This document shows, in pieces, positions 247 to 13,840 of a DNA stretch of 13,840 nucleotides. Source of the stretch: a virus. Under the pieces are notes generated by a model. The model saw nothing but the letters and a program-made list of their open reading frames with translations, was not told the origin of the DNA and did no database searches. Where the stretch lies: positions 1 through 13,840 of the IMG/VR virus record IMGVR_UViG_3300045988_099202; one strand, given 5' to 3'. How positions within the stretch are numbered: the stretch's first letter is position 1; each line of letters opens with the position of its first letter. The position numbers and the translations under genes were made by a program.

Positions 247-251
247 GAATT

Positions 252-467: not shown

Positions 468-651
468 TTTCCGATTTCTGGCAGTCCAGCTTCTTCGGGC
501 GAAATCCTTAACAGAGATTTGCAACTTGACAAATCGAAATTATAAGGGCTACACGCTCGATGAACGTGAATGCCTGCTGATGCTTGCAAAGGCGGTAACT
601 CGAGAGATTATCGCAACGAGACAAGCCGAAAGGAAAGAACAGAATGTGTGA
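460..651 (+). CDS. Hypothetical early protein (63 aa), weakly helix-turn-helix-like
   Basis: ATG 460 is preceded by AAGGGGG (443-449) and overlaps the upstream gene by 8 nt. The segment KSLTEICNLTNRN is vaguely HTH-like. The function is not supported beyond that. Confidence 0.6.
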   Translation: MSDFRFLAVQLLRAKSLTEICNLTNRNYKGYTLDERECLLMLAKAVTREIIATRQAERKEQNV

Positions 652-706
652 GTTACTGGCGGGTGTGCTTGCTATATTATTAGTATGTTGGGGGTTGCAA
701 CAATGA
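644..706 (+). CDS. Hydrophobic micro-ORF, 20 aa (MCELLAGVLAILLVCWGLQQ), paralog of 13281-13337
   Basis: Not in the supplied ORF track; translated by hand. ATG 644 overlaps the upstream stop (ATGTGTGA), with the AGGAAAG SD at 631-637. Its TGA (704-706) overlaps the next ATG (703) as ATGA. A paralogous peptide sits in the other arm in the same context. Confidence 0.5.
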   Translation: MCELLAGVLAILLVCWGLQQ

Positions 707-912
707 TGAAACGAGTGAAATTAACCGGCAAGCAATTGGACGAATTATATAATAGAGGTTACACGTTCACGGCAAAAAGCTATTACTGGCAGTGTTATGG
801 CGGGAATTTAGCGAACCGGATTAGCAAAGCTGAGTATTTGAGCAGGGGCATTGCTGAGCCGCTCCGCGGAGTCGAACAAGTCCGAATCTACAAGAGGGAG
901 GAAGACAGATGA
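703..912 (+). CDS. Hypothetical early protein (69 aa)
   Basis: ATG 703 is preceded by GGGGG (690-694), in an ATGA overlap with the micro-ORF stop. The track start at 685 has no SD. The stop overlaps the next gene (ATGA at 909-912). Confidence 0.65.
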   Translation: MMKRVKLTGKQLDELYNRGYTFTAKSYYWQCYGGNLANRISKAEYLSRGIAEPLRGVEQVRIYKREEDR

Positions 913-1157
913 CTGCTAATTATGTGCTTATTCGGTACGATGCTAATGGAAGAGAAATCGAAAGGAACGACGAAAGAGGTGTCAAAAGGTTTGAATTTTA
1001 TTCGCTCACGTTCGCAATGAGGTCGATGGAAATTGCTACAAACATTTCTAACGGCACGCAGTGCGCAAAGCTCTATCGTCGCCGCCGTGCCGGTGGGTAT
1101 CGCTGGGTTGCAACTCGTTTTCGTGGGGGCGCGCATCTAACTGCATGGGGTGAATAA
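909..1157 (+). CDS. Hypothetical early protein (82 aa), basic C-terminal half
   Basis: ATG 909 is preceded by GGGAGGAAG. The Arg-rich stretch LYRRRRAGGYRWVATRFRGG suggests nucleic-acid binding, but this is unproven. The gene ends at the bidirectional terminator. Confidence 0.65.
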   Translation: MTANYVLIRYDANGREIERNDERGVKRFEFYSLTFAMRSMEIATNISNGTQCAKLYRRRRAGGYRWVATRFRGGAHLTAWGE

Positions 1158-1182
1158 AAGGGAGGGCAATGCCCTCCCTTTT
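1156..1182. terminator. Bidirectional rho-independent terminator between the convergent left early operon and the late operon
   Basis: AAAA-GGGAGGGC-AAT-GCCCTCCC-TTTT: a perfect 8-bp GC-rich stem (1160-1167 / 1171-1178) with a 3-nt loop, flanked by an A-run and a T-run. It lies between stop codons at 1155-1157 (+) and 1187-1189 (-). Confidence 0.88.
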
Positions 1183-1186
1183 ATTG

Positions 1187-2641: not shown

Positions 2642-2658
2642 ATATTTTACACCTCCTG

Positions 2659-3231
2659 TTAATATACCCAAATTAAAAACCGCTTCTTAAAATCCAGAAT
2701 AACAGCATCATAGAAGTTGAACATTGCAACACGCCGTTCACTTTCCAGCATTTCTTGCGTAGTGGTTACACCGATGTTACCGTGCGCCCGCCCTGTTCGA
2801 GTTCCTGCGCTTGTGCCTGTCCCGGCACTATCGCTTGTATCCGCGCTTGTGCTTGCGCTGGTGCTTGCGCTATTGTCAGCCGGTTTTTGTAAATCGTTGT
2901 AACCGTAAACTTGTTCTTTTGTTGAGCCACTGGAAGTGTTGTTTGCGGAATTCGTATAGCGTGAAGTGTTTGTGGTGCTGTCCTCCCATTCTTCCATTCT
3001 GTCATAATTTTCTATTGGATTATATTCCGCCGTTAGTGTTTCGGCAAAGTGTTGCCAAGTATATTGCGAAATTTTTGACCATACCCGAATTAGCGATTTA
3101 AGTAAAGGCGGCGACGAATAAAGAACAGGCAATTCTCCGCACTGCATCAATAGCGTGTCGACGAAATCTTGCACCGATATATTAGAAGGAAATTCCACGC
3201 CGTCAAAGATGGAAGGATCGAAATTATACAT
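2659..3231 (-). CDS. Putative lower collar / head-tail adaptor protein (190 aa)
   Basis: ATG 3231 overlaps the portal stop (ATGTATAA). It sits directly after the portal, as phi29 gp11 does. It has an EYNPIENYD motif and a Ser/Thr/Ala/Gly low-complexity stretch (nt 2791-2880). It is shorter than gp11, so the call rests mostly on position. Confidence 0.5.
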   Translation of the reverse strand: MYNFDPSIFDGVEFPSNISVQDFVDTLLMQCGELPVLYSSPPLLKSLIRVWSKISQYTWQHFAETLTAEYNPIENYDRMEEWEDSTTNTSRYTNSANNTSSGSTKEQVYGYNDLQKPADNSASTSASTSADTSDSAGTGTSAGTRTGRAHGNIGVTTTQEMLESERRVAMFNFYDAVILDFKKRFLIWVY

Positions 3232-4150
3232 TGTCGCCAACATCACGCTCAATCTTATTACCTCCATTTGTGTTATGCTCAATCGGATAACGCCGCTCAC
3301 AAGTGATTCTCACACCGAACGCATTCCGAACGTTGCGGATGCAATCTTGAATGGTGTCGAACCACTGCGCAACGATTGCATCTGTTTCAACGTCGTTCCG
3401 TTCCGCTTCGGCTGTAATCAGCCGTTCTTTTTTGTCGGTGTTACAATTCGGAATCCCAACACGTGTATCAAATTCTGCTTCAATTTGCCTCATGTTGGAA
3501 AGTATTCTGTCCGCGATATAGTTTTGCCCTACATTTTGTGCGAATGGCGCCCACGAGGGGGAACCATCATCGTTAAAAAGGGCTTTATCCACCCATACAG
3601 CTAATTCGCCAGATGTTACCCTATCCATCAATTCTTTGCCAGTTTGTGCGGCATTTTTAGAACTGCACGCGAACACATAGGAAAGTTTAGAATTCATAAT
3701 GTTCATTGCAAGCGATTCAACACATGTTGCAAGCAAGTCCGCGTAATAATTAACAATGTCTAACGCGCCATGATAATCGCGTTGCAACCGGAAAAGAACG
3801 CAATCCTTATCAATTTGCAAGCGCATCGGTGGCAAAAGGGGATTTGAAATCATCACGGTTGTAGGCTGATAGAAAACATTGTATCCATACAATGCGCCCG
3901 CCTGCGGAATTACACCGTAACGCTTGCTGTTAAAAATCGCCACGCTTCCCCATGCGTACAAGCAGCCGAGAAAATATGTATCGCTCCAACCTTCGGGAAA
4001 GCTCCATTTGAATTGGCTTGTTAGTTTCTGGAATAAATAGCGCTGATAATATTGGAAAAGCGCTGTGTTTTTTGTGTGGCAGGTAGAAGGGGAAATGCTC
4101 GATTCGTAGGCATTTATGCGGTTGTAATCAAAGGGCGGATTGTTAGCCAT
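3224..4150 (-). CDS. Portal (upper collar / connector) protein, phi29 gp10-like (308 aa)
   Basis: ATG 4150 follows GAAGGTGA and overlaps the upstream stop (ATGGCTAA). The size matches gp10 (309 aa). The segment VGIPNCNTDKKERLITAEAERNDVE resembles the gp10 [24 protein letters not shown] region as I recall it. Confidence 0.8.
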   Translation of the reverse strand: MANNPPFDYNRINAYESSISPSTCHTKNTALFQYYQRYLFQKLTSQFKWSFPEGWSDTYFLGCLYAWGSVAIFNSKRYGVIPQAGALYGYNVFYQPTTVMISNPLLPPMRLQIDKDCVLFRLQRDYHGALDIVNYYADLLATCVESLAMNIMNSKLSYVFACSSKNAAQTGKELMDRVTSGELAVWVDKALFNDDGSPSWAPFAQNVGQNYIADRILSNMRQIEAEFDTRVGIPNCNTDKKERLITAEAERNDVETDAIVAQWFDTIQDCIRNVRNAFGVRITCERRYPIEHNTNGGNKIERDVGDNV

Positions 4151-5672
4151 TAGATTCACCTTCTTCAATGAAAAATCCAGATGATAAATATTGCAACAGC
4201 AAAGCGATTTCTGGCTGCGAAGCAAGAATCACATCAATATCGGGGTGCTGAATTGTGGTAAACCCTGTAAGCGTTGAAAGTTTTAGCTTCTTACAACATG
4301 GCGTTCCCAAATCTTCATTATCAGAATTTGCCACATGAGCAAACCTCCAAAAGATGTGCGGTTGCACATTATAGCTTGATAAATTGCCGTTGTGTCCCTG
4401 CACACTTAAAACGCCATTAGCGGCATGTGCCGCCGTGCCGATTCCCGCAAACGTTGTTTCGCCTGAACCAATACCGGCAAGCGCTCCCTTGAAAGTGTTA
4501 GTTTGCGTCATCCCAACTAGCGCTCCTGCTCCCGCGCCTAATATCGCAAGCGCTCCGCTTCCGCCAGTGCCGAGCGCTCCAGCATTCGCGCCGGCTGCCG
4601 CTGAACCAATAACGTTTGTAACGTCAGAGATTGCGCCGCCTATCCAACTCGTTTGCGCAAGCTGTATATCTACGCCAATTTGGCATTCTGCATAATACAA
4701 GAGATTATCACCGGATGATATAGTTATACTCCCAATTCCCGATACACAATCAACCCTAATTCCGATTCCAATAGATTCCTTTTGTAGTTTTGTTGGGTCT
4801 AATTGTATTACCCCAAACGGCGGATAATATAGGTAGTATGTAGAATATGGCGCGTATGCAAGCCATTTTCCACGCCCAATTTGAGGATGAACGCCAATAT
4901 TATTTACAGTTATTCCCTTCGTGATAACGCCATCAGCAGCAAGCAATGATGCAGTTCCGCCTGTAAAATCCCATCCACAAATTGTTATGGATGAAACAAC
5001 GCCCGACGTTGGCGGTTTTTCTGGAAACCATCGGCACGAAACTATATATTGAAAAGGATTTATAATCGCACGTTGCAATTCCGCCGAAATTTCACTGTCC
5101 GCGATTCCCATGTAAGAAAAATCTGTCAAAAGGGCATGACGCAATGAAGCGAACTGTGCATTAGACATCACATAATATGCAATACCACCTACTGAATTTG
5201 TGGCGTTGTTTACGATACCCAGAACATAATAGCCAGATGTAAGAGTTGGTAACCCCCATCCTGTAACATCCGCCCCCCCGCTTGTAATTTTAGAAGTCAC
5301 AGGGTAAAGGCTATCAACTATTGATAAATCGCCAGCGCTTGCAGAACGCAAAATATACTGTGTAGATTCTTTAAGAGTTTCCCAGTAAGTAGCAAGAACA
5401 TCGCATGAAAGTGTATAAATCACACGGTTTCGGTCGAACATCATGTCGGCGACAAAATAATAACGATGGAAATCTGGAATGTATGCGTAATTGTAAGCTG
5501 CCGGGGAAAGTTGATGATCCGGAAAAATTAGCGCAACTTGCGGCGCAAGAACGCTTGTTAAATCTTTGAGCGTGCATTCCGTCAAAAAAGATAGCTGCCC
5601 CTGTTCATTTTTGGTAGTTGGGCGCTTCGTTGAATTAATACGTTTACGAAACGCATACATTCGTATTTGCAT
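4143..5672 (-). CDS. Tail knob / distal tail tube protein, phi29 gp9-like (509 aa)
   Basis: ATG 5672 follows GGAGGTGA. It sits immediately upstream of the portal, as gp9 does. YYFVADMMF...CDVLATYW resembles gp9 WFYAFV...IDVLQTW. A long Gly/Ala-rich hydrophobic segment (aa 344-420) parallels the membrane-active loop of gp9. Confidence 0.65.
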   Translation of the reverse strand: MQIRMYAFRKRINSTKRPTTKNEQGQLSFLTECTLKDLTSVLAPQVALIFPDHQLSPAAYNYAYIPDFHRYYFVADMMFDRNRVIYTLSCDVLATYWETLKESTQYILRSASAGDLSIVDSLYPVTSKITSGGADVTGWGLPTLTSGYYVLGIVNNATNSVGGIAYYVMSNAQFASLRHALLTDFSYMGIADSEISAELQRAIINPFQYIVSCRWFPEKPPTSGVVSSITICGWDFTGGTASLLAADGVITKGITVNNIGVHPQIGRGKWLAYAPYSTYYLYYPPFGVIQLDPTKLQKESIGIGIRVDCVSGIGSITISSGDNLLYYAECQIGVDIQLAQTSWIGGAISDVTNVIGSAAAGANAGALGTGGSGALAILGAGAGALVGMTQTNTFKGALAGIGSGETTFAGIGTAAHAANGVLSVQGHNGNLSSYNVQPHIFWRFAHVANSDNEDLGTPCCKKLKLSTLTGFTTIQHPDIDVILASQPEIALLLQYLSSGFFIEEGESNG

Positions 5673-5678
5673 TTTGTA

Positions 5679-6422
5679 TCACCTCCATTTATTAGCCGCT
5701 TTGCAAATAAACCAGATAGGCAAGCTATTCAGATTGATTTTTTGTAATTTATTGTACCAGTAATTCGCCCACTGAATACGATATTTACTTGTTGCTTCCC
5801 AGTCCGTTATTGCAGGGCGTTCATAGCAGAGACAGAAACTTTTTGTCAACTGCTCAACATCTGTGCTATCGGAAAAGTAAAAATCTTGGAAATTGGGGTA
5901 GATTGTGCCGCCCTCCCACTGATAATTATGCTCCACCTCGTACATAATGCGCGCAATCTGAATGCTGCCGTTGTACCAACAATCAAGCCCAGCATATGCC
6001 CCATTTGTTCCAAATATTTCTAGAGCCCAATCTATATATTTATCTGCTCCTGTCCACTGAACAAGCCCAAAACCGTATTTCTTTTCGGTGTTCTGCTTGT
6101 AATTATTTGGGTCAGGGCTCGGGGCGTGCCCGCCCTGCCATAGGGCGGGATTAAGTGTAGATTCCCGGCACATATTCCCGAGCATTGCTGATATTTGGGG
6201 GACTTTCCATCCGTTTTTATACAGCCCAGTTGCAATCAATACCCCGTTTGTTTCGCTCGCTGTCTCGTGATCTTGATAGTCAAAATATGGATCATCGTAT
6301 ATACTATAATACCACTCCTGCGGCAACCGAAACGGCTTGTACCAATGGGGATAACGTGTTTCTGTGCTATCCACAGCAGGGACTATGTTACTACCTGGTA
6401 TCCTCTGTCTATCTCCCGCCAT
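5679..6422 (-). CDS. Virion-associated peptidoglycan hydrolase (phage tail lysozyme-type domain, gp13 analog) (247 aa)
   Basis: ATG 6422 lies 6 nt after AGGAGG; the track start at 6464 lacks an SD. The motifs MLGNMCRESTLNP and GFGLVQWTG match the G-N-x3-ES / G-x-x-QW signature of the phage tail lysozyme family. Confidence 0.6.
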   Translation of the reverse strand: MAGDRQRIPGSNIVPAVDSTETRYPHWYKPFRLPQEWYYSIYDDPYFDYQDHETASETNGVLIATGLYKNGWKVPQISAMLGNMCRESTLNPALWQGGHAPSPDPNNYKQNTEKKYGFGLVQWTGADKYIDWALEIFGTNGAYAGLDCWYNGSIQIARIMYEVEHNYQWEGGTIYPNFQDFYFSDSTDVEQLTKSFCLCYERPAITDWEATSKYRIQWANYWYNKLQKINLNSLPIWFICKAANKWR

Positions 6423-6495
6423 GTTGCACCTCCTGTATTTTCTGGTAAAGTTATTTACCAACACATTTGGAAAATCGCACAGAATCGTCTCAAAC

Positions 6496-6571
6496 GTAAT
6501 AGCCCTGTATTGCTATGTTATTAACTTGGGCGCCTTATAGGGCCTGTTTTGTGCGAATACAGGGCTATTAC
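6496..6571 (-). other. Long perfect inverted repeat (16-bp stem, 44-nt spacer) just downstream of the capsid gene; possible RNA stabiliser, partial terminator or processing site
   Basis: GTAATAGCCCTGTATT (6496-6511) pairs perfectly with AATACAGGGCTATTAC (6556-6571). It lies in the 156-bp gap between the capsid stop (6579) and the next start (6422). On the minus strand the stem is followed only by GUUUGAG, so it is not a canonical intrinsic terminator. Confidence 0.55.
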
Positions 6572-6578
6572 TATTAAG

Positions 6579-7754
6579 TTAATCCATCAGAATAACAATA
6601 CCCTTTTCGGTAAAGTCAATGGCGTGTCGCTCGTTGTACTTCCAGAAAATGTTGTAATATTCGCCCTTCGCGTTCGGAGGCGTCACCCTCTGCCGCGTTA
6701 GAATCGGGCTGTACCCGAAAGCGTCACGGTCACAGATAATACCAAGTACGTTGCCTTGCTTTACGTCAGCCGTCGCCGTTGCAATAGTGCCATCAGCGGC
6801 GAGATACTGGGGCTTTACAACATTGATTTTCTGAGGGTCTGTCATAATTTGCCAGTAATTCACATATTCAACATCGCCCGCCATACGCAAGAAATTATCG
6901 TGGAACGTATCCGCAAGCGCCATCATGTTAGTTTGATGCATAAACATCGAATTAAGATAAACACGCTGTGCGGACTTAGGGCTGTGCTGGAGGAATACGC
7001 CATCGGCGCTATTGGTCTGGTACAAGCTGGAATATTCTGTCAGCATATCAGACAGATTAGCAAGGCGAGAGAACACCCACTGCGTAAACGCTTTATAGTT
7101 GGCGGGTTGCATAACGGTTGTCGCAGTCATGTCAAGCCCTGTAACGGTGTTGTACTCCGTCAGCAGATGAATAACATCGGCGTTCTGTGCAATCTTGCCA
7201 GCGGCAAACCCAGCTACGGTTGCGCGCGCGGTTTCTTCGTGCGTCTTTTCGATTTTGTTATTCATATTCGTCAAAACCATCGAAATAAATGCACCGAAAT
7301 CTTCTGCCGAATTAAACGCCGTGTTTAACTGCGTTTCAAAAATCGTTTTTTCGTATTCGTAGCTTTGCTGCCCGTAGAAGTTAAACTGTGCAACCTTCGG
7401 CTTGTGAATCGTGTACTGGTCTACGCTCTGACCGTCGGTCAAATCACAGTAAGGGTTATCGGTCAGGTCGCCCGGGTCGTCAATCGTCTTAATTTTCCTC
7501 ACCCAGTTTCCCCACTGGTCGCCGGGAATCCGCATACCCTCAAACTTCGCTTTGTATGGGCGGCTGGAAAAAATTGTTCGCGAAAGCATCTGCGAAATTG
7601 CATTCATTACAGGGTCAGCCCCCGTTTTCAACGCCTTCTGTCCGAGCGTCAACAACTGCTTAGTGTCAAGCGCGGCTGTATCCTGCCCGGTTGCATCTTT
7701 AAGCACTGCTTTCAGTAGAGTGCTAATCTTATCAATTGTCAAAGTGTTAGCCAT
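6579..7754 (-). CDS. Major capsid protein (391 aa)
   Basis: ATG 7754 lies 7 nt after GGAGGTG. It sits directly downstream of the scaffold gene, as in the phi29 gp7-gp8 order. Its size is typical of small-podovirus HK97-fold capsid proteins, and it is followed by a strong hairpin. The assignment rests on synteny and size; no diagnostic motif was recognised. Confidence 0.75.
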   Translation of the reverse strand: MANTLTIDKISTLLKAVLKDATGQDTAALDTKQLLTLGQKALKTGADPVMNAISQMLSRTIFSSRPYKAKFEGMRIPGDQWGNWVRKIKTIDDPGDLTDNPYCDLTDGQSVDQYTIHKPKVAQFNFYGQQSYEYEKTIFETQLNTAFNSAEDFGAFISMVLTNMNNKIEKTHEETARATVAGFAAGKIAQNADVIHLLTEYNTVTGLDMTATTVMQPANYKAFTQWVFSRLANLSDMLTEYSSLYQTNSADGVFLQHSPKSAQRVYLNSMFMHQTNMMALADTFHDNFLRMAGDVEYVNYWQIMTDPQKINVVKPQYLAADGTIATATADVKQGNVLGIICDRDAFGYSPILTRQRVTPPNAKGEYYNIFWKYNERHAIDFTEKGIVILMD

Positions 7755-7768
7755 TTACGGCACCTCCA

Positions 7769-8101
7769 TCAGTTCGGGCGGATAATTTCCGACAAAACAT
7801 CCTCTGCAGTCAACGTCTTGCTATTGTCAACCTGTGCACTCTGCAAATTGCCCTTCTGCACAATGCCAGTAAGATTTGCAATTTGCTGGAAAACCTTGTT
7901 GAACTGCTCCTGCGTATTATCCGGCGCCGGTGCTGGTGCCGGTGCCGGTGCTGGTGCCGGTGCCGGTGCTGGCGCCGGTGCCGGTGCCGGTGCTGGTGCC
8001 GGTGCCGGTGCTGGCGCGGGTGCATCAATCTGCATCAGCTTTCCAATCTGTTCAGCGGTGAAGCCAGCTTTTGCCAGCGTCAAAATGTCGGATACATTCA
8101 T
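7769..8101 (-). CDS. Putative scaffolding protein with central (Ala-Pro)17 linker (110 aa)
   Basis: ATG 8101 overlaps the endolysin stop (TAATG), with a GGAGG 9 nt upstream. It is small, predicted helical at both ends, and sits immediately upstream of the capsid gene, like phi29 gp7 (98 aa). Confidence 0.55.
7922..8023 (-). repeat. In-frame 102-bp tandem repeat (6-bp unit GCN-CCN, 18-bp higher order) encoding 17 consecutive Ala-Pro dipeptides
   Basis: Counted codon by codon: 34 alternating Ala (GCA/GCG) and Pro (CCG/CCA/CCC) codons between two Asp codons (8026-8024 and 7921-7919). Confidence 0.95.
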
Positions 8102-8604
8102 TATTTGTTGCCTCCATATTTATTTACAAGTGTGACAAGTTCGCCGTATAGGTTAGAATATAGTTCGTTCGCATCCTGCACAGGAGTGCTGACAACCTCA
8201 GACGCATAGTATAGGCAATCGGCCTTCGCGTGGTGCGTCCACCGCCTCCGATTAGTAATTTTATCCATCTGAACGCCTCCCGTCGTAGAATGAATTACTT
8301 CACCGTTGCCGATGTAAATTCCAACATGAGCGGCATTCACACCATCGGTATAGCGCTTTGGTTCTTTGCCATCATGTTTGATAGTAAATACCCATTCGCC
8401 TACATCGATGTTATCAAAATTGTCAGATTTGTCATGGACTGCGCCGCGCCACATATCATTCGAGCCGCGCCAGTTCTTATTGATATTGGCATATTTTCTC
8501 AAACAGTGTTCGACAAACGCCTGACAATCAAGTGTGGCGTACGGGATACCGATTAGATTATTTTTATCTGCCCTGATTTTCCCCGCCCATTCTACAGCAA
8601 TCAA
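8101..8604 (-). CDS. Endolysin, NlpC/P60-family cysteine peptidase (167 aa)
   Basis: The catalytic-type motifs [11 protein letters not shown] (Cys) and [16 protein letters not shown] (His) are typical of NlpC/P60. The TTG start at 8604 overlaps the holin stop (TTGA). No obvious cell-wall-binding domain. Confidence 0.75.
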
Positions 8605-8795
8605 TTCCCATCACCGCCCAACCTATCAATGAGGTGCTGCATCACAATCGTATTATTATTGATTGCATCCTTTAATTCCGCCGTTTCTTCCCTGTGCTGC
8701 TCACGCTCCCTATTCCAAAAATAGAAAAGTGCGCAAGTACAAGCAATCGGAAACCCTACGTTTGTAATGAGCGTAATAATGTCGGAAACTTCCAT
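8601..8795 (-). CDS. Holin, BhlA/UviB-like (64 aa from Met47 of the track ORF)
   Basis: A single TM (VSDIITLITNVGFPIACTCALFYFW) is followed by the charged helix NREREQHREETAELKD, as in BhlA-type holins. GGGAGGG lies just upstream of ATG 8795. It sits immediately upstream of, and is coupled to, the endolysin gene. An alternative start is Met43 (8807). Confidence 0.65.
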   Translation of the reverse strand: MEVSDIITLITNVGFPIACTCALFYFWNREREQHREETAELKDAINNNTIVMQHLIDRLGGDGN

Positions 8796-8811
8796 ACACC
8801 CTCCCATCTCC

Positions 8812-8900
8812 CGGAAAACAAAATGGCAATAGGGGTCGGGGCATGCGACTATGCCATGCTCACCCTTCCGGGGTTGTCGTTCGAGCTTCCCTATTGCCAT
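8812..8900 (-). terminator. Structured leader: 12-bp closing stem around a 54-nt GC-rich insert, followed by a U-tract (attenuator/terminator-like, or a small RNA 3' end)
   Basis: On the minus-strand RNA, AUGGCAAUAGGG (8900-8889) pairs perfectly with CCCUAUUGCCAU (8834-8823). It is followed by UUUGUUUUCC (8822-8813). Internal helices are possible, for example GCAUG/CAUGC and ACCC/GGGU. Confidence 0.5.
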
Positions 8901-8904
8901 AATC

Positions 8905-8933
8905 AATGTATCATAATTTTTAAATTTTGTCAA
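8905..8933 (-). promoter_or_regulatory. Near-consensus sigma-A/sigma-70 promoter upstream of the lysis and structural genes
   Basis: TTGACA (8933-8928, perfect -35), 17-nt spacer containing TG at 8913-8912 (extended -10, TGaTACATT), -10 TACATT (8910-8905). It starts 3 nt after the ATPase stop. The predicted TSS near 8899-8897 coincides with the 5' arm of the leader hairpin. Confidence 0.6.
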
Positions 8934-8936
8934 GAC

Positions 8937-9956
8937 TTATTTAACTATCCCGAAATATTGGCAGAAAACAATTTCGCAAGCCGGAGATTCGCAATAAATT
9001 TTTCGTTCAATATATGCCAGCATCAGATACCGATACAGCGTGCGGAATCGTAAACAATCATTTTCCGTAGTGCTGTATATCGGGCGCGTTCCTTGCCCGT
9101 GCGGGCTAATATAAAATGTTCGGTTGCTCTTGTGCCGATAAACTGTAATTTCTCCGCACGTTACGAGAGGCGTGTACTCTTTTAGGTTCGCGCTCATGGT
9201 TTGCAATACAGGTTTATCCAAAAAGCGATTTTCAAGCGACATATCTTTTATTTTATTATCCTTAAGAAGGCGATAAAGCGCCGTTTCTCCCTTCATGCGG
9301 CTTATGGGGCTATTGCGCAGGTTTATCAGATATAATCCGCGTTCGCCATCTTTATATTCCTGTGTTTCCTGCTCCGCCATTTTATATGCAATCGTGATAA
9401 GCCCTAAACTTTGAAAAATCGGGTTTACAATGCTGTTACTATTGGCAAGGCATAAACACTTCACAGGGGGCTTACCTTGCAGCTCTCTATTTCTGTTTAT
9501 TGTTTCATATGCATTAAAAAACGCATCCCCTTCATTTTTGATTCTGCGCTCATGCGATTCTGGAATAAATTCATCAAATATGATAATTTCAATATCATGC
9601 GCGGAAAAACCGCGAATATTTGATACGCCAGATAGTGCCAGTACATACCCGGCAGGGGTGCTTTCCTCGTTGATATACACAGCGGTTGCTTCTTTGGAAA
9701 CTTTATCCATTTCTAGAGACAAGGACATATCATCGCAAACGGGCGCAAAAGGTGACATTTCAGGCGCGCTAATAACATCCGCTTGTAGTTTCGTTCGTCT
9801 CATATAGATAAATTTCATTTTATGTTCAATCACATATTTAAGTGAACCGTAAGTTTTACCTGTACCTCTTGCACCCGTCATTAAAATAAATGGATATTTT
9901 TGTTCTATGATTCGCGCCATGTCAACATATCCATTTTTCAAAAATAGGTTATTCAT
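8937..9956 (-). CDS. DNA encapsidation (packaging) ATPase, phi29 gp16-like (339 aa)
   Basis: Walker A MTGARGTGKTY, FIYMRR, Walker B IIIFDEFI, CLCLANSNSIVNPIF and MSLENRFL parallel gp16 GARGIGKSY, FIYVRRY, VFDEFI, CICLSNAVSVVNPYF and MSLDNQFI (recalled). ATG 9956 follows GGAGGGG. The alternative ATG 9968 lies in the terminator U-tract and has no SD. Confidence 0.88.
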   Translation of the reverse strand: MNNLFLKNGYVDMARIIEQKYPFILMTGARGTGKTYGSLKYVIEHKMKFIYMRRTKLQADVISAPEMSPFAPVCDDMSLSLEMDKVSKEATAVYINEESTPAGYVLALSGVSNIRGFSAHDIEIIIFDEFIPESHERRIKNEGDAFFNAYETINRNRELQGKPPVKCLCLANSNSIVNPIFQSLGLITIAYKMAEQETQEYKDGERGLYLINLRNSPISRMKGETALYRLLKDNKIKDMSLENRFLDKPVLQTMSANLKEYTPLVTCGEITVYRHKSNRTFYISPHGQGTRPIYSTTENDCLRFRTLYRYLMLAYIERKIYCESPACEIVFCQYFGIVK

Positions 9957-9965
9957 GCTCCCCTC

Positions 9966-9998
9966 CATAAAATAAAGGCAGGGTTCTTCGCCCTGCCT
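9966..9998 (-). terminator. Rho-independent terminator at the end of the right early (replication) operon
   Basis: On the minus-strand RNA: AGGCAGGG-CGAAGAA-CCCUGCCU (stem 9998-9991 / 9983-9976), followed by UUAUUUUAU. It starts 10 nt after the stop of the 116-aa gene. There is no T-run on the plus-strand side, so it is unidirectional. Confidence 0.8.
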
Positions 9999-10007
9999 CT
10001 GACAGCA

Positions 10008-10358
10008 TCAATCGAAAATCAATTCGCACGATGTGTAGTTGCGGTTGTTTTTGCTCCGAATCTGTGTAATCATAATCTTGAAGCCTACATCGTCCATACC
10101 CGCCGTGCCCAGATAATCAACAATGGCAAGAAGCCGTTCGCTGAACGCTCTCCCATTCGTGATATATGGCACGCCATCTATGATAATCCCGCAACGCGGC
10201 TTAAACTCGCCGTTACCATCAACTGTTTCAGTCACCGCCCAAGCGTCAACGCGAACTGTTTTCAACATCAACTCCGACATCGTATGCCCTTCGCGGGAAA
10301 GCGTCAGCTTGTACAGTTCCGCCGGGGAAATGCTCTGATTAGTCTTCGTGTTACTCAT
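10008..10358 (-). CDS. Early protein, putative phi29 p5-like single-stranded DNA-binding protein (116 aa)
   Basis: ATG 10358 lies 7 nt after AGGAGGG, directly downstream of the polymerase. Its size is close to p5 (124 aa). The pattern IIIDGVPYI...SERLLAIVDYL...FKIMITQIRSKNNRNYTSCEL loosely parallels p5 AADGSLYS...ASDLIDLV...FKVKVVQGTSSKGNVFFSLQL as I recall it. Confidence 0.4.
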   Translation of the reverse strand: MSNTKTNQSISPAELYKLTLSREGHTMSELMLKTVRVDAWAVTETVDGNGEFKPRCGIIIDGVPYITNGRAFSERLLAIVDYLGTAGMDDVGFKIMITQIRSKNNRNYTSCELIFD

Positions 10359-10389
10359 GAGAAAGCCCTCCTAAATATTTGTTCGGCGG

Positions 10390-12408
10390 TTATCGCCTAA
10401 TAAGATTATAGCACAAATTACGGTCAGCGTCAACACTTATATAAGTGTTCTGCAACGCTTCGAGTAAGTCCGCGTATTTGTAAGTAATTCCCACAGCATA
10501 GGTTGAAGGGCGCAAGCATACATTTCTGGTTATTGGTAACTCGTGTCCATCAACGCTAATTGTCTTGGATACATAGTCATTATAAACACTTTCAAGCCCT
10601 CCCGCTTTTCGGAAAACAAAACCGGGCACAATTTTTACGAGTCCCCCTGCTTCTTCCAGTTCATCAGCGCCGCCCCACTCCACAATATCACCCGCAGCGT
10701 TTTTGCTGGAATTTTTGCGTACCCCCGCGATAGTTATGTTTATATGCCCCTGTTCATCCTGTGACGCATATTTTTTCGCCCCCCATGTTAAAAACTGATA
10801 ATATTCACCCTCTGTTTCTGCCACGCCCATATAATGCACGGTTCCATGGGGGTCTACGGCACACGCTCCATGAGCAAGGGATGCTGTTTTGCATCTGTTA
10901 TTATATGATTCATAACTAATTGATTCTGATTTTATATATTTACAGCTATCCGTATCGGCATAAACAAAATTATTTCCTGCAATCTTTATCATTTCTTCCA
11001 ACTCAAGTCTTGCGTACGCAGTAACCCATACGCCCCATTGATACGGCAGAAATGATTTTTTGATATTTTTAATAACGTCCGTTTCCTGCTGAATGTATTT
11101 GTTGCCGTCGAATATAATATCATCTTTTCCGGGGTCTGTGGCTGTCATGCCGTACAAGCTATTTAACAAATTCTTGCTTTTCATGTATTCATATTCACTC
11201 CCGGCGATTCCTTTAAGCGAAGTTTTGTTTGTATAATAGCGTTTTATACAATCCGTAAAAGGTTTTGGTAAATAGTCCTTCTCTGCCGTGTATATGTCTG
11301 TAAAATCAAATTCGCCATCATATTCTTCGAGAATTATCTGCATATCTACTTCTGTTACTTCAATCGTCAGCGCATCCGCTTCAAGCACACGTCCGTTATC
11401 TTCCACAGGATTTATAAGCATTTGGCATTTGCTAACAGGTATATAAGGGCAACCCCACAACGGATTGCGCAGGGTAGCGCCTGTTATGCTCATCGTACAA
11501 AGAATTGCAAGCCCGGATGAAAACGCCCTCCTAACAGTTGCTATTCCATCAGGGCATTTCTTGAATGGTTTCATAGGAAACTTCTTATTTATCATAACAT
11601 CAGGATAGCTTGACGATCGATCGACCGATTGCACACCCGATAATACCTTCCCGACGAAATAGCGGTTCGCGTGCGTGTTCCCGCCTCGAAACGCCTTGCG
11701 AAGTTTTCTGTAAATTTCTTCTGTGGGTTTAAGCGCTCCAAGTGGTGTTTGGCTTAACGCTTGTTTTGCATCCCGGCGCACGTAGCCAGTAAAGGTGCGC
11801 GGAACTGTATAGAGAGTGTCGCCATCTTGCGAAATCTTCTTTTCGGCGGCTTCAAGTAGCCCGATAACGTCATTTTGACAATATTCAATTTCATCTTCTG
11901 AAAGTTCTGTCCACGGATAACGGACTTTAGAATAGTCGAATTCAGCGCCTGACTTCTTCACGTGCTGGACATTCATTTCCTTCAGAAACTTTGAAAGCGT
12001 TTTATTTGTCCAAATATAGGAACAGCGATATTCAATACATCCGCAAGTTGCGGACAGTATTTTCCGGGCTTTAAGGCACTTAACATCACTAAATTCATAA
12101 ATCCCTGCGAGAAATTGGAACTCATACGAAAGATTGTGAACCAGACAGATTATTGTAATTCCGCCAAGATGCGCATTTAAGGCTTCCTGCAATGCTGTCC
12201 ACTCTTCCCACGTTCTCCCGTATGTGATGTAGTATTCCCCGCAAACATAAAGTCCGCACTGCCAGATGTACATTATAGCATTATCGTCTTCGAGCCTCGT
12301 TGTTTCAATGTCAAAAGCCATAAGCGCGTCGGCGTATACGATTTTAGCCCGTGGATTATCAGGCGTTAACGCCGTTATTTTTTGGATCCCATCATATACG
12401 CTGAACAC
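10390..12408 (-). CDS. Protein-primed family-B DNA polymerase (672 aa)
   Basis: Exo I AFDIETT, Exo II HNLSYEFQF, Exo III YCQNDV, motif A VDRSSSYP, motif B KNLLNSLYG, motif C YADTDS and the KxY motif GAKKYA are all present in canonical order. The GTG start at 12408 lies 2 nt after the terminal protein stop. Confidence 0.95.
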   Translation of the reverse strand: MFSVYDGIQKITALTPDNPRAKIVYADALMAFDIETTRLEDDNAIMYIWQCGLYVCGEYYITYGRTWEEWTALQEALNAHLGGITIICLVHNLSYEFQFLAGIYEFSDVKCLKARKILSATCGCIEYRCSYIWTNKTLSKFLKEMNVQHVKKSGAEFDYSKVRYPWTELSEDEIEYCQNDVIGLLEAAEKKISQDGDTLYTVPRTFTGYVRRDAKQALSQTPLGALKPTEEIYRKLRKAFRGGNTHANRYFVGKVLSGVQSVDRSSSYPDVMINKKFPMKPFKKCPDGIATVRRAFSSGLAILCTMSITGATLRNPLWGCPYIPVSKCQMLINPVEDNGRVLEADALTIEVTEVDMQIILEEYDGEFDFTDIYTAEKDYLPKPFTDCIKRYYTNKTSLKGIAGSEYEYMKSKNLLNSLYGMTATDPGKDDIIFDGNKYIQQETDVIKNIKKSFLPYQWGVWVTAYARLELEEMIKIAGNNFVYADTDSCKYIKSESISYESYNNRCKTASLAHGACAVDPHGTVHYMGVAETEGEYYQFLTWGAKKYASQDEQGHINITIAGVRKNSSKNAAGDIVEWGGADELEEAGGLVKIVPGFVFRKAGGLESVYNDYVSKTISVDGHELPITRNVCLRPSTYAVGITYKYADLLEALQNTYISVDADRNLCYNLIRR

Positions 12409-12410
12409 TC

Positions 12411-13112
12411 CTAAATCTTCCCTTCTCTTTTTGCTTTTTCAAACATTGCGCGAACGGTCGAACCGCTCACAAATTCCCCGGCTTTAAGCCGTTCTTTATA
12501 TCGCGCCCGTGCTTTGTCGGCTTGACGCTCCCAATAGTTCCACCTCTTTAACAAGTCCTCCCAGTCCGATTTTGCAAATTTTCGCTTAACGCTGGTAGTT
12601 CCTTCCTGCGATACATCAAGAATATCTTGCAAAATATAATAGTATTGCGCTTCTTTATTCGCATCAGCGTAAACCGCGAAAAATTTTCGAAATTGCAGAA
12701 AGTCCTCATAGGTGAATGTTTCTTCAGTAAACCATCCACGATGTAAAAGTGTTTCATACTCGCGTTTCCACTGGTTTTGTTGTGTATCAAATAACTGTTG
12801 TGGTGTTTTTGTTCCGCTAACAACTTTCCACATGGCGCGAATCTGCCGGACGCCTTCATCCACCGTCCGCACGGTGGAGGGTTTATCCCAATAATGGCGC
12901 TCATACTGTTTAATGCTTTCGTACTCAATGCCCTTCTTCTTTGCCGCCTTAAAGCGCTTATCCATTAGGTCAATTAACGACTTCATCTCTTTTTTAACAT
13001 CTTTTAGCGTCAAACCGGCTTTAGGAATTTTTGTACCTACATATACAGCCTTTGGAAGGGGGCGATTTTCAAGTGCCGTACTTTGCGCGAATCGTTTATT
13101 CCATCGTGCCAT
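12411..13112 (-). CDS. Putative terminal protein (replication primer) (233 aa)
   Basis: It sits immediately upstream of the polymerase and nearly abuts it, as in phi29 gene 3-gene 2. The size is similar to phi29 TP (266 aa). It is highly charged and basic, and starts MARWNKR (phi29 TP starts MARSPR). A Ser/Thr cluster (VSGSTV) near the C-terminus is a candidate priming site. No rigorous homology was established. Confidence 0.55.
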   Translation of the reverse strand: MARWNKRFAQSTALENRPLPKAVYVGTKIPKAGLTLKDVKKEMKSLIDLMDKRFKAAKKKGIEYESIKQYERHYWDKPSTVRTVDEGVRQIRAMWKVVSGTKTPQQLFDTQQNQWKREYETLLHRGWFTEETFTYEDFLQFRKFFAVYADANKEAQYYYILQDILDVSQEGTTSVKRKFAKSDWEDLLKRWNYWERQADKARARYKERLKAGEFVSGSTVRAMFEKAKREGKI

Positions 13113-13284
13113 TCTTTATAAGCCCCCTTCTCAACAACTCATTATAGACGGTTTTAATACAGAGCCGAGCTGTTTTTGATAGATTGTCCATTCTCGTAAT
13201 GTCGCAAATTTCTTTTAGTCGCTTCAAATCTTCGGGATACATGGATAGCGTTATCACTTTATATTGGCGCTTTCTATTGTTCAT
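13096..13284 (-). CDS. Putative ribbon-helix-helix (CopG/Arc-like) transcriptional regulator (62 aa)
   Basis: ATG 13284 is preceded by GGGGG and is in an ATGA overlap with the micro-ORF stop. YKVITLSMYPEDLKRLKEICDITRMDNLSKTARLCIKTVYNELL fits a beta-strand, helix, loop, helix RHH pattern. Its 3' end overlaps the TP start by 17 nt. Confidence 0.5.
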   Translation of the reverse strand: MNNRKRQYKVITLSMYPEDLKRLKEICDITRMDNLSKTARLCIKTVYNELLRRGLIKNGTME

Positions 13285-13337
13285 TGTTGCAACCCCCATG
13301 TAACAAGGATTATAAGCATGACTGCCGTTAGCAACAT
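13281..13337 (-). CDS. Hydrophobic micro-ORF, 18 aa (MLLTAVMLIILVTWGLQQ), paralog of 644-706
   Basis: Not in the supplied track; translated by hand. The GGAGG SD (13352-13348) lies 10 nt upstream of ATG 13337. Its TGA (13283-13281) overlaps the ATG of the RHH gene (ATGA). Confidence 0.5.
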   Translation of the reverse strand: MLLTAVMLIILVTWGLQQ

Positions 13338-13354
13338 TTGGTTTTCGCCTCCAG

Positions 13355-13585
13355 TTATTGTCTCCAAACGTAACGTGTTAAATTGCAATAACGGGCAAGC
13401 GGTTCAACTCGTTCGTAGCCAATAATTATGCCGCGGTCGATCTGAACCTTGAACGGAAAAACATTTACCTCCGAGCCGTCATAAAGACTTGCAATTCCGT
13501 AAATGATTCTGCCACCCTCAACATAGTAGCGGAAACCGTCATGGGTGACGTGCCAACCTTCGCGAGTGATAATTGATTTATTCAT
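13355..13585 (-). CDS. Hypothetical early protein (76 aa), first gene of the right early operon
   Basis: ATG 13585 lies 9 nt after the GAAGGG that ends the ITR; the track start at 13591 is a TTG. The composition is beta-rich, with no recognisable motifs. Confidence 0.65.
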   Translation of the reverse strand: MNKSIITREGWHVTHDGFRYYVEGGRIIYGIASLYDGSEVNVFPFKVQIDRGIIIGYERVEPLARYCNLTRYVWRQ

Positions 13586-13594
13586 GTGCAACTT

Positions 13595-13840
13595 CCCTTC
13601 TGGTTTGTGAGGTTTCCTTCCTCTTTACATTTATATAATAACACATTCAGGCGATGTTGTGAAGATACTGTTAGTTGAGTTTGAGGAGAAATTTTTTCTA
13701 CTCTTGGTTGAGTTGGAAATGCGTTATATAACAGACGTTATACATTGAATGATGCTTATATGTGATTGATGAGCGGCTGACAGAGGTAACAAGCCATGAT
13801 TGTGGGGAATGACAATTGTAAATTTATTACCAGAATACCC
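13595..13840. repeat. Right inverted terminal repeat (ITR-R)
   Basis: Reverse complement of 1-246 (244/246 identical). Similarity ends right after the shared GAAGGG ribosome-binding motif. Confidence 0.97.
13635..13663 (-). promoter_or_regulatory. ITR-borne inward-facing early promoter (right copy)
   Basis: Mirror copy on the minus strand: TTCACA (13663-13658), 17-nt spacer, extended -10 TGtTATTAT (13643-13635). The two ITR mismatches both fall in this element and bring the -10 closer to TATAAT than in the left copy. Confidence 0.6.

Follow-up and report, generated by a model that had tools for sequence, protein, structure and literature searches.

What is encoded in the short interval between the packaging ATPase gene and the late genes of a small phi29-like phage? 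The window analysed here is a stretch of 13,840 nucleotides, positions 1 to 13,840 of IMG/VR record IMGVR_UViG_3300045988_099202, from a 13.8-kb phi29-like gut phage that encodes a gp16-type ATPase, a Phi29_MCP capsid protein, a GP10-type connector and a type-B DNA polymerase (Pfam matches in the genome are to PF05894, PF05352, PF25622 and PF03175) and has terminal inverted repeats of 251 bp. The Gp16-type DNA-packaging ATPase gene (8937..9968, minus strand; PF05894, E 3.6e-19) adjoins the interval on its upstream side, and its product matches phi29 gp16 (PDB 7jqq_A) over residues 29-306 with E 1.7e-15. Within the GenBank phage collection the nearest cultured ATPases are those of Amedibacillus phages AD70P2 and AD70P3, followed by those of the pRNA-using Bacillus phages. 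On the other side lies the first late gene (8601..8795, minus strand, ATG at 8795), coding for a 64-residue holin-like protein with matches to PHROG 9829 (unknown function, E 1.3e-5) and PHROG 4898 (holin, E 1.7e-3); the motif VGFPIA is present in the first late gene of most relatives. Scans for tRNA and tmRNA genes found none in the window. An earlier note on this DNA, made from the letters alone, had offered two readings of the interval: (a) a constitutive promoter and terminator that need a phage antiterminator, as in lambda, or (b) a discrete structured RNA, possibly an analogue of the phi29 packaging RNA (pRNA).

The interval opens with a sigma-70-type promoter (8905..8933, minus strand; scan score 10/12 plus TG), of which the -35 hexamer TTGACA (8933-8928) begins 3 nt past the ATPase stop codon (8939-8937) and is separated from the -10 hexamer TACATT (8910-8905) by a 17-nt spacer carrying TG at 8913-8912. 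These elements are where the earlier note had placed them on the minus strand, although its description of the promoter as the best match in the genome does not hold, as a site at 10433-10405 scores 11/12 and six others equal its 10/12. Transcription is predicted to start at about 8898, the first position of the conserved 10-bp core of the closing helix (helix A), and the predicted start coincides with the 5' end of that helix, much as proposed. A promoter scoring at least 9/12, usually with a perfect TTGACA, precedes 54 of 59 distinct homologous RNAs, and the gap from the end of the -10 hexamer to the closing helix is usually 4-8 nt in this set. We also considered the interval as the coding N-terminal extension of the first late gene in a 110-codon open reading frame (8601-8933). 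This open reading frame is an artefact, its supposed TTG start codon being nothing other than the -35 hexamer. Of 13 close relatives, 6 have the frame out of register with the gene downstream and 3 have stop codons in it.

Downstream of the promoter, a perfect 12-bp stem (8900-8889 paired with 8834-8823) encloses 54 nt (8888-8835) folded into two hairpins, and is followed by a U-tract, all at the coordinates reported before. The minimum-free-energy fold of the RNA is a three-way junction (-33.3 kcal/mol, z = -3.2), and only 1 of 200 shuffled sequences is equally stable. All of its parts lie on the minus strand. The 5' arm of helix A, AUGGCAAUAGGG, occupies 8889..8900 and is identified by the fold and by compensatory changes. 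Hairpin 1 (8858..8886) corresponds to helices C and E of pRNA, in a descriptor parse that fits 79 of 88 loci; it is built from a lower helix C (GCUC 8886-8883 with GAGC 8861-8858), a 5' bulge GAACGACA (8882-8875) containing the pairing core CGAC (8879-8876), helix E (ACCC 8874-8871 with GGGU 8865-8862) and a near-invariant pentaloop CGGAA (8870-8866). Hairpin 2 (8840..8855) corresponds to pRNA helix D (GGCAU 8855-8851 with AUGCC 8844-8840), and within its loop AGUCGC (8850-8845) the sequence GUCG (8849-8846) is complementary to the CGAC of the bulge. The junction strand J3 (8839-8835), which is CCGAC in the window and AAGAA-like and purine-rich in most relatives, leads into the 3' arm of helix A (8834-8823). 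The U-tract UUUGUUUU (8815..8822) stands directly 3' of helix A, giving the RNA a terminator-like 3' end. At 8810..8816 stands an 'anti-E' motif, UUCCGGG, the complement of CCCGGAA, which consists of the 5' arm of helix E and the pentaloop; a Shine-Dalgarno sequence GGGAGG (8805-8800) is found about 5 nt further downstream.

The same three-way junction is present in about 120 related phage contigs, with ATPases down to approximately 33% identity, and in these it is located just past a near-consensus promoter and ahead of the late genes. The architecture descriptor is satisfied by 79 of 88 loci. A covariance model (R1) built from the conserved architecture gave 77 matches when searched against the window and 87 loci (519 kb), and 39 more in 50 further loci, with exactly one match per positive locus, always on the coding strand, and no strays. 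Paired cells make up 78.8% of the model alignment (51.6% when shuffled), and the covariation score of 0.668 compares with 0.182 for shuffled alignments and with at most 0.231 for controls in which the pairing partner was slid by 1-3 columns; none of 500 shuffles reached the observed score. All four nested helices covary. Helix A has two-sided changes at all 8 of its pairs in the model alignment, as well as compensatory and G-U changes among close relatives, and helix E is 100% paired with two-sided changes at all 4 pairs, so that covariation bears out both the stem and the helices within it. Helix A averages 10.3 bp in the family (range 8-12) and is 12 bp in the window. The RNA was found only in phages with gp16-type ATPases, among which it appears about as universal as the core genes. 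The related phages that carry it number in the hundreds. The conservation of structure is far beyond chance, and the window element is a conserved structured RNA gene and not merely a terminator.

Two other searches for candidates were set aside. A generic descriptor scan of L102, L104, L105 and phi29 recovered only the AD70P3 RNA, and its other top matches looked spurious. A second structured element, following the capsid gene (6465-6578, z = -5.4), might have been another candidate for a pRNA, yet no more than 7 of the 13 close relatives have it; a different gene junction stands at this place in the remainder.

The most informative feature of the family is the relationship between the bulge of hairpin 1 and the D loop. 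Complementarity between them averages 4.38 nt within an RNA and 2.38 nt when the two elements are taken from different RNAs, and none of 10,000 permutations reaches the observed value. The pairing is 4-6 nt long and is found with 24 distinct cores; an alignment that was not fitted to it has 75.9% of its cells paired, with two-sided changes at 3 of 5 pairs. The separation of the two elements is also constrained. Helix E and the D loop are 11.07 +/- 0.99 nt apart (helix C, J2 and helix D combined), and the variance of this sum is 0.98 as against 2.54 for the summed variances of its parts, the length of C being negatively correlated with that of J2 plus D (-0.59). Such a constant sum fits an arrangement in which C and D are stacked end to end over one helical turn. 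Stacked in this way the bulge and the loop would be too far apart to pair within one molecule, which is sterically unlikely also where the linkers are of zero length, and we infer that the pairing is between molecules. The CE bulge and D loop of phi29 pRNA have the same topology, and their pairing is between molecules.

Three-way junctions with complementary or contacting elements in two arms are also known in purine riboswitches and in RNAs of the hammerhead type. There the two arms run alongside each other and touch through conserved sequences, whereas in the window family the pairing sequence is free to vary, and what stays constant is the sum of the arm lengths and not their difference. 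We saw no conserved junction core in the family, and no Rfam family matches the locus.

Comparison with phi29 pRNA shows both likenesses and differences. Each RNA belongs to a phi29-like, protein-primed phage with a gp16-type ATPase, and each has a consensus extended -10 promoter (A1 in phi29) placed so that the transcript opens with helix A. In both, the 5' and 3' ends are paired in a helix A that closes a three-way junction, the C/E arm is bulged on its 5' strand only, and the 3'-terminal nucleotides of the bulge complement nearly the whole of a short D loop. Both conserve structure and barely conserve sequence, the Bacillus pRNAs sharing only 12% sequence similarity. The window RNA is nonetheless much shorter (about 76 nt, compared with 117-174 nt), with a helix A of 8-12 bp in its family instead of about 25 bp and a helix C of 4-6 bp instead of 9-10 bp; the long, bulged A helix of phi29 pRNA engages the ATPase and is needed for packaging. 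The junctions differ too, J3 and J2 being 4-6 and 0-2 nt here and 0 and 3 nt in phi29, as does the E loop, which in the window-type RNAs is an invariant CGGAA. The window-type RNA stands at the head of the late operon and pRNA at the genome end. Neither covariance model detects the other RNA: the Rfam pRNA model (RF00044), which scores 145 bits on phi29, has no match in the window at E <= 10 and does not match the CI55P1 RNA described below, and R1 does not match phi29 pRNA. Rfam scans of the whole window and, permissively, of a 151-nt region gave only sub-threshold, chance matches of a snoRNA-like kind.

The portal proteins provide a further comparison. A basic cluster at the N-terminus of the connector (RKR in phi29) is implicated in pRNA binding, and the portal begins MARKRSNTYR in phi29, MSSKRRKIK in Clostridium phage CI55P1 and MANNPPFDYNRINAYE in the window. 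The earlier note was right that the window portal lacks such a cluster, and its absence extends to the five short-RNA relatives with readable portal starts (L088, L093, L100, L101 and AD70P3), while phi29 and CI55P1 both have one. On the side against a pRNA reading we note the lack of model-detectable homology, the short A helix, the different junction and the non-basic portal N-terminus, as well as a linkage to the late genes of the kind that a cis-acting leader would show.

Longer RNAs in other relatives provide a context for these differences. The cultured Clostridium phages CI55P1 and CI461P1, whose ATPase is 32% identical to gp16, and the metagenomic genomes L290, L314 and L302 carry RNAs of about 108-125 nt upstream of the ATPase gene, each of them a three-way junction in which helix A is long and bulged, helix C has 9 bp, the bulge is on the 5' side and J3 is 0. 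Their bulge is complementary to the D loop, and they follow a promoter and precede late or packaging genes. The pairings of L290 and CI55P1 are two compensatory changes apart, and the long RNA of L314 has a GGAA E loop. The CI55P1 RNA lies at 4764-4871 of NC_073482, and the short form is represented in culture by AD70P3 (OP172639; RNA at about 6373-6309 of the record, equal to 5856-5920 of L099). The long RNAs look like full-size pRNAs and the window RNA like a reduced form.

The most likely explanation, to which we give about an even chance, is that the late promoter yields a miniature packaging RNA that associates with itself. It builds on the observed structure, covariation, position, phage distribution and end-defining signals. 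The segment from 8898 to about 8815 on the minus strand would give rise to a stable RNA species in its own right, about 76-85 nt long, with its 5' end at the start of a strong constitutive promoter and its two ends paired as helix A. The CGAC of the bulge would pair with the GUCG of the D loop in a second copy to give dimers or rings, and, by analogy with phi29 pRNA, the assembly would dock on the prohead and help the gp16-type ATPase to package the protein-primed genome; prohead binding and a part in packaging are thus argued from phi29. The late operon would be driven by the same promoter, with helix A and the U-tract ending most transcripts as the free RNA and read-through giving the late mRNA. 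In the many clades that have no terminator the RNA would need to be processed for release. A point against this is that, by a rough geometric estimate, a five-membered ring with about 16 bp per side would have a hole of approximately 40-45 Å, which is smaller than the narrow end of the phi29 connector (about 66 Å). In a more specific form, which we hold a little less firmly and place just short of an even chance, this would be the smallest natural prohead RNA (about 76 nt), a self-assembling ring or dimer subunit essential for packaging in a very large, mostly uncultured clade of ~13-kb phi29-like gut phages. The RNA would be fused to the head of the late operon, with one promoter supplying packaging RNA and late mRNA, and in read-through transcripts anti-E would mask the E loop. 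Of the two readings in the earlier note, the comparisons favour (b), a discrete RNA analogous to pRNA, which has gained a covarying three-way junction, a predicted start at helix A, a bulge-loop pair and longer phi29-like versions, and is weakened by the portal N-terminus and by the linkage of the RNA to the late operon and not to the ATPase gene.

That linkage is the first reason to consider a cis-acting late-operon leader, the main rival, which we think possible although rather unlikely, and in which the RNA is either an antiterminator like put and EAR or a 5' domain that governs how stable the message of the first late gene is or how well it is translated, for instance if anti-E, beside the Shine-Dalgarno sequence, pairs with the E loop. 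The RNA had been regarded as linked to the ATPase gene, but in L088-type genomes it is far from that gene and in L215-type genomes another gene stands between them, the RNA in both staying with the first late gene. All the genome arrangements observed place it between the promoter and that gene, with the ATPase gene adjacent or not, as expected of a leader. A near-consensus promoter ahead of the lysis genes likewise suggests control after initiation. In the L024 clade a separate, strong hairpin terminator comes between the RNA and the Shine-Dalgarno sequence and leaves no space for a further promoter, a layout resembling that of an antiterminator.

A second line of support for a leader comes from the sequences that follow helix A. 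At least 22 of the 59 distinct RNAs, or about 4 in 10, have a stretch of 6 nt or more that complements the E loop and its flanks and tracks the sequence of the E helix; these counts are lower bounds, the Shine-Dalgarno pattern match having shortened some sequences, and the control with mixed RNAs is also high because the sequence of the E loop is invariant. Where present, the complement is about 5-12 nt upstream of the Shine-Dalgarno sequence, and in RNAs that lack it the Shine-Dalgarno sequence is 3-14 nt past helix A.

The 3' ends of the RNAs tell against a leader. Every member of the window clade has a U-rich tail (5-7 U in 8 nt), but a tail with at least 5 U in 8 nt is found in only 23 of the 59 distinct RNAs. 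Of the 80 contigs in the L105 clade, 77 have a tRNA-Gln gene that begins 3-8 nt past the RNA, between it and the late genes, and many clades are without any terminator after the RNA. The 12-bp stem of the window closes a multi-branch loop, which the terminator scanner does not model. Because the U-rich tail is restricted to 23 of 59 RNAs and other clades have a hairpin terminator or none, termination appears not to be the conserved function of the RNA. Maturation of the adjoining tRNA-Gln by RNase P would cut the RNA off, which argues against control of translation or stability, though not against co-transcriptional antitermination. The predicted start, usually at the 5' end of helix A, and the three independent devices at the 3' end (U-tract, hairpin terminator or adjoining tRNA) are marks of a free, stable RNA.

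The known antiterminators offer a limited parallel. The put RNAs of HK022 and the EAR RNA of Bacillus are cis-acting processive antiterminators, compact structured RNAs just past the promoter of a long operon and sometimes followed by terminators, and their action needs neither a +1 start nor a defined 3' end. They lack the bulge-loop pairing of the window RNA; put consists of two simple stem-loops, with no pairing of this type to our knowledge, and we know of no structural similarity between put or EAR and the window RNA. Nothing relevant matched in the Rfam scans of the locus. The freely variable pairing of 4-6 bp with its 24 cores, together with the constant spacing of about 11 nt, fits an intermolecular interaction better than a tertiary contact within a leader, and in the longer relatives each element has its counterpart in pRNA.

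The signs of a discrete RNA and of intermolecular pairing serve equally well a free, self-assembling RNA with a role outside packaging, which we consider improbable. Such an RNA could be an RNA-only homo-oligomer of the type recently described for GOLLD, ROOL and OLE, or a decoy or regulator acting in trans, for example by pairing of its E loop with the late-mRNA leader to time lysis; the late leader does hold a complement to the invariant CGGAA loop. The 11-nt spacing of the pairing elements is one helical turn, a distance that favours closed dimers in designed 'tectoRNA' dimers. The portal without a basic N-terminus is also easily accommodated. Natural multimerising bacterial RNAs have been described and offer a precedent (bioRxiv 10.1101/2024.12.08.627333, in the text of which 'kissing' occurs 14 times). 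Against this role, the RNA was found only with gp16-type ATPases and appears as universal there as the core genes, its closest architecture is that of pRNA with graded intermediates in the phages whose ATPase is closest to that of phi29, and no independent evidence for another target was found.

Reading (a) is supported only in part. Its resemblance to lambda PR'-tR'/Q consists of a constitutive promoter with a close terminator ahead of lysis and structural genes; the lambda system differs in requiring the Q protein and a DNA binding site, and in a 6S transcript without a conserved complex fold, whereas in the window family it is the fold that is conserved and the terminator that is optional. 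The conserved U-rich tail of the window clade is the part of this reading that stands; the restriction of that tail to 23 RNAs, the clades without a terminator and the lack of anything pointing to a Q-like protein go against the remainder. A strong promoter with nothing more than an unusually large intrinsic terminator or attenuator, tuning early against late transcription, perhaps with a lambda Q-like factor and with functionless inner hairpins, would account for the 12-bp stem followed by UUUGUUUU, yet it is very improbable, as the inner hairpins, CGGAA loop and bulge-loop pair, superfluous for termination, covary down to about 33% ATPase identity, the U-rich tail is not general and no Q-like protein was identified.

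The pRNA was first reported in 1987, and reviews from 2016 and 2024 still confine it to phi29 and its near relatives among the Bacillus phages. We found no earlier description of the RNA reported here in Rfam or in the papers searched on pRNA outside Bacillus phages, on phage structured RNAs or under the names of the cultured phages. Highly expressed candidate RNAs of 64-86 nt from Blautia, Ruminococcus and Lachnospiraceae phages in PMC10690425 may correspond to it. Should it prove to be a cis-acting switch of the late operon, it would still constitute an undescribed and very widespread class of regulatory RNA in the smallest tailed phages. If instead the packaging reading is right, a pRNA-like family is present in hundreds of gut-phage genomes, with graded lengths between about 125 and about 70 nt and including at least four cultured members (AD70P2, AD70P3, CI55P1 and CI461P1). 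Its minimal core would be defined as the junction, the bulge-loop pair and the E loop, and RNA nanotechnology, which has drawn so far on the pRNAs of a few Bacillus phages, would gain many new natural self-pairing three-way-junction modules. The origin of pRNA and the motor's need for an RNA would become testable by comparison and by experiment, and RNA-dependent packaging would be ancestral and widespread in the phi29-like phages rather than a peculiarity of those that infect Bacillus.

The packaging-ATPase gene (8937-9968, minus strand; stop codon 8939-8937) is followed after just 3 nt by a promoter-like sequence on the same strand, with a -35 hexamer TTGACA (8933-8928), a 17-nt spacer containing TG (8913-8912) and a -10 hexamer TACATT (8910-8905), from which transcription is predicted to start near 8898. 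A perfect 12-bp stem (8900-8889 with 8834-8823) encloses 54 nt and continues directly into the tail UUUGUUUU (8822-8815), downstream of which a 64-aa holin-like gene starts at ATG 8795 behind the Shine-Dalgarno sequence GGGAGG (8805-8800), all on the minus strand. This order of promoter, stem and tail is as the earlier note described it. At its minimum free energy (-33.3 kcal/mol, z = -3.2) the region folds into a three-way junction. The promoter was also called the best in the genome, but in a promoter scan it scores 10/12 plus TG, versus 11/12 at 10433-10405, and the proposed 110-aa open reading frame starting at 8933 does not hold up: its start is the TTG of the -35 hexamer, and among 13 close relatives the frame is out of phase in six and carries stop codons in three.

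Judged by its protein matches, the window phage is a phi29-like podovirus, with a gp16-type ATPase (PF05894), profile matches to the Phi29_MCP capsid protein, a GP10-type connector and a type-B DNA polymerase, and NlpC/P60 and tail-lysozyme proteins. The ATPase has a match (E 1.7e-15, residues 29-306) to the gp16 chain of the phi29 packaging-motor structure 7JQQ, and in the GenBank phage collection it is closest to unannotated human-faecal contigs, next to Amedibacillus phages AD70P2 and AD70P3, which are cultured, and after these to the Bacillus phi29 group. Terminal inverted repeats of 251 bp (1-251 and 13590-13840; 98% complementary) show that the window is a complete linear genome, and each contains an inward-facing promoter-like site (178-206, plus strand; 13663-13635, minus strand). 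Two further structured elements are present. A G+C-rich hairpin, AAAAGGGAGGGCAAUGCCCUCCCUUUU (1144-1230), with an A-run on one side and a U-run on the other, separates the convergent genes of the left end from the last late gene; it resembles a bidirectional terminator and gives rise to the window's weak Rfam sRNA matches. The other (6465-6578, minus strand), 3' of the major capsid gene, is built on a perfect stem of 16 bp (-37 kcal/mol, z = -5.4), and a CGCACA inside it is complementary to a UGUGCG further downstream. Only seven of 13 close relatives have it, two of them in shortened form; the rest lack it and differ in the downstream gene junction. A mobile hairpin, or an attenuator behind the capsid gene, is a possible explanation.

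Relatives of the RNA locus were gathered from IMG/VR through the ATPase (13 close and 74 more distant). The close relatives share an almost unchanging RNA core but differ in the promoter spacer, in the leader downstream and even in the gene that follows. Phages whose ATPases are 92-97% identical (L002, L005, L007 and L010-L013 compared with window 8795) differ clearly in the first late gene, of which there are two versions (ATGGAAGTTTCC... and GTGGATGTAAC...), and the near identity of the RNA upstream of both places a recombination boundary at its 3' edge. Where ATPase identity falls to 41-48% the RNA sequence is almost wholly different and the architecture is the same. Among these distant relatives the 5'-most and 3'-most strands form helix A (6-12 bp); a junction strand J1 of 0-2 nt leads to helix C (4-7 bp), which a bulge of 7-8 nt, confined to the 5' strand, separates from helix E (3-5 bp) with its near-invariant CGGAA pentaloop; then come J2 (mostly 0-2 nt) and helix D (3-7 bp, loop of 4-9 nt), and a purine-rich J3 (3-6 nt) precedes the 3' strand of helix A. 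A covariance model, R1, trained on 35 representatives, gives a single match per RNA-bearing locus, always on the coding strand, with no stray matches in 519 kb, and finds 39 matches in 50 further diverse loci. The earlier note had proposed covariation as a check, and the structure does covary. In an R1-based alignment of 60 sequences, 78.8% of cells are standard pairs versus 51.6% when shuffled, and the covariation score is 0.668 versus 0.182, with none of 500 shuffles as high and a maximum of 0.231 when partners are slid by 1-3 columns; helix E is 100% paired with both-side changes at all four pairs. The original observation is real and, on comparative sequence grounds, marks a conserved and previously undescribed RNA family. 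A catalogue (Fremin 2023, PMC10690425) listing over 10,000 candidate structured RNAs found in IMG/VR may include this motif under an anonymous identifier, for example among the highly expressed 64-86-nt RNAs that it singles out in gut phages of Blautia, Ruminococcus and Lachnospiraceae (DNAVirus_6425, 6426 and 6258).

The D loop is complementary to the 3' portion of the bulge, and they vary in concert: CGAC with GUCG in the window, GGUCA with UGACC (L021), GACCA with UGGUC (L029), AGUCA with UGACU (L034), GCACA with UGUGC (L023), GAAAC with GUUUC (L024), GUCCA with UGGAC (L066) and AGGCA with UGCCU (L082) in related loci. There are 24 distinct pairing cores among 37 distinct bulge/loop combinations. 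The longest Watson-Crick run averages 4.38 nt within the same RNA and 2.38 nt when different RNAs are combined, and none of 10,000 permutations reaches the observed mean. The R1-based alignment took no account of this pairing, yet pairing at the five proposed positions stands at 75.9%, with both-side changes at three of them, in 22-33 sequences each.

This is the core design of phi29 pRNA at about two-thirds of its size. In pRNA (RF00044 consensus and fold) the 5' and 3' ends form a long helix A closing a three-way junction, and the C/E arm is bulged on its 5' strand alone; the bulge ends in the four nucleotides AACC, which pair with GGUU in the D-hairpin loop (5 nt) of a neighbouring pRNA. 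The C-E-D region is the prohead-binding domain and helix A engages the ATPase; Bacillus pRNAs keep this structure with just 12% sequence similarity. pRNA starts about 7 nt after a TTGACA-17-TGnTATAAT promoter, and promoters scoring at least 9/12 precede 54 of 59 distinct short RNAs; their TTGACA is mostly perfect, even in cases where the -35 lies within ATPase coding sequence, and 4-8 nt usually separate the -10 from helix A. A palindrome, TTGTTTCACGTGAAACA, overlaps the -35 and spacer in L067 and L071, with a version, TTGTTTCACGTGGAACAA, between RNA and ATPase Shine-Dalgarno in L314; a dimeric regulator of the late promoter might use it as an operator. There are also differences from pRNA. 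Helix A is shorter and the junction strands are redistributed; a five-membered ring with sides of about 16 bp would, on a rough estimate, be tighter than that of phi29. The RF00044 search of the window found no pRNA match, nor does R1 match phi29 pRNA. The phi29 portal has a basic N-terminus (MARKRS...), whereas the window portal, as the earlier note correctly remarked, has no such cluster, and neither do the five short-RNA relatives with a readable portal start.

Longer RNAs bridge the two forms. In the Clostridium phages CI55P1 (L188 4764-4871, NC_073482) and CI461P1 (L189), with ATPases 32% identical to gp16 and 22% to that of the window, a promoter followed by an RNA of about 108 nt lies between the polymerase and ATPase genes. 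This RNA matches pRNA in each of its elements: helix A is bulged and 24 bp long, helix C has 9 bp, the 5' bulge reads AUACCA, an E hairpin follows, J2 is UU, the D hairpin has the loop CUGGUAA, J3 is absent, and a U-tract comes last. Its clade has compensatory changes. The metagenomic L290 (60% ATPase identity) differs by two such changes, with AGCCA/UGGCU in place of the UACCA/UGGUA of CI55P1, and the CI55P1 portal keeps a basic N-terminus (MSSKRRKIK), as in phi29. The 116-nt RNA of L314 (-49 kcal/mol, z = -3.84; GGAA E loop) has a topology almost identical to phi29 pRNA. These long forms (about 108-125 nt, in CI55P1, CI461P1, L290, L314 and L302/L303), all placed between polymerase and ATPase genes and each repeating the elements of the pRNA layout, with a long bulged helix A and bulge-loop complementarity, are probably true pRNAs outside Bacillus phages; they escape detection by RF00044 and are neither annotated nor described in the literature searched.

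In the short RNAs, the sum of helix C, J2 and helix D (from helix E to the D loop) is 11.07 +/- 0.99 nt (mode 11), with a variance of 0.98 versus 2.54 summed over the parts and a correlation of -0.59 between C and J2+D, figures drawn from phylogenetically related sequences with somewhat ambiguous parse boundaries. End-to-end stacking of C and D into a rod of one helical turn, with bulge and D loop at opposite ends on the same face, should give a constant sum; arms lying side by side and touching within one molecule should instead give a constant difference. Many members also have J1 = J2 = 0 linkers and a fully paired 5-nt loop, and from these features together we infer that the short RNA self-associates into dimers or rings.

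The main alternative is a cis-acting leader of the late operon, which we consider less likely than a packaging role. The earlier note placed the RNA beside the packaging ATPase; this is true of the window, but what stays constant across relatives is the neighbouring first late gene. L088-type genomes have their ATPase on the other strand about 8 kb away, and the RNA, with its TTGACA promoter, 12-bp helix A and U-tract, is still directly ahead of a holin-like gene, while L215-type genomes have a 115-aa gene with its own promoter between ATPase and RNA. Many clades have no terminator after the RNA. A leader is also favoured by an anti-E motif about 5-12 nt upstream of the first late gene's Shine-Dalgarno, with 6-8 nt complementary to the pentaloop and the 5' strand of helix E, mimicking its 3' strand: UUCCGGG versus CCCGGAA in the window (8810-8816, minus strand), CUUCCGGC versus GCCGGAAG in L101 and UCCGUCCG versus CGGACGGA in L088, with equivalents at the same position in L021, L023, L024, L029, L052 and L103. 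The motif accompanies about four of ten distinct RNAs and varies with helix E; in the others the Shine-Dalgarno lies 3-14 nt past helix A. Against a leader, the predicted transcript always begins at the start of helix A, and the 3' end is set by three unrelated devices: a U-tract (5-7 U in 8 nt) in the window clade, a canonical hairpin terminator in the L024 clade, and, in an abundant gut-phage clade (L105 5131-5206, MT836587, and L107-L186), a tRNA-Gln 3-8 nt past helix A and before the late genes in 77 of 80 contigs (anticodon UUG in 75, CUG in two), directly after the RNA, so that RNase P would release it. The RNA of this clade (GGGA D loop; variable E loop, not CGGAA) shows compensatory changes of its own, located in helices A, D and E. 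Some other self-assembling or trans-acting role is less probable still, and it is very improbable that so covarying a structure is a mere terminator.

The most likely of the four readings, to which we give about even credence, is that the window RNA is a miniature pRNA-like packaging RNA. It would be made from the late promoter, self-associate and act in trans in packaging, while partial termination or read-through would feed the late operon. The cultured AD70P3 (L099 5856-5920, OP172639) and AD70P2 (L106) carry a short-RNA variant after a TTGACA...TGaTATATT promoter, with E loop CCGAA or UCGAA, respectively, bulge AUAUCCAA and D loop GGGA, and provide an experimental system for the short form.
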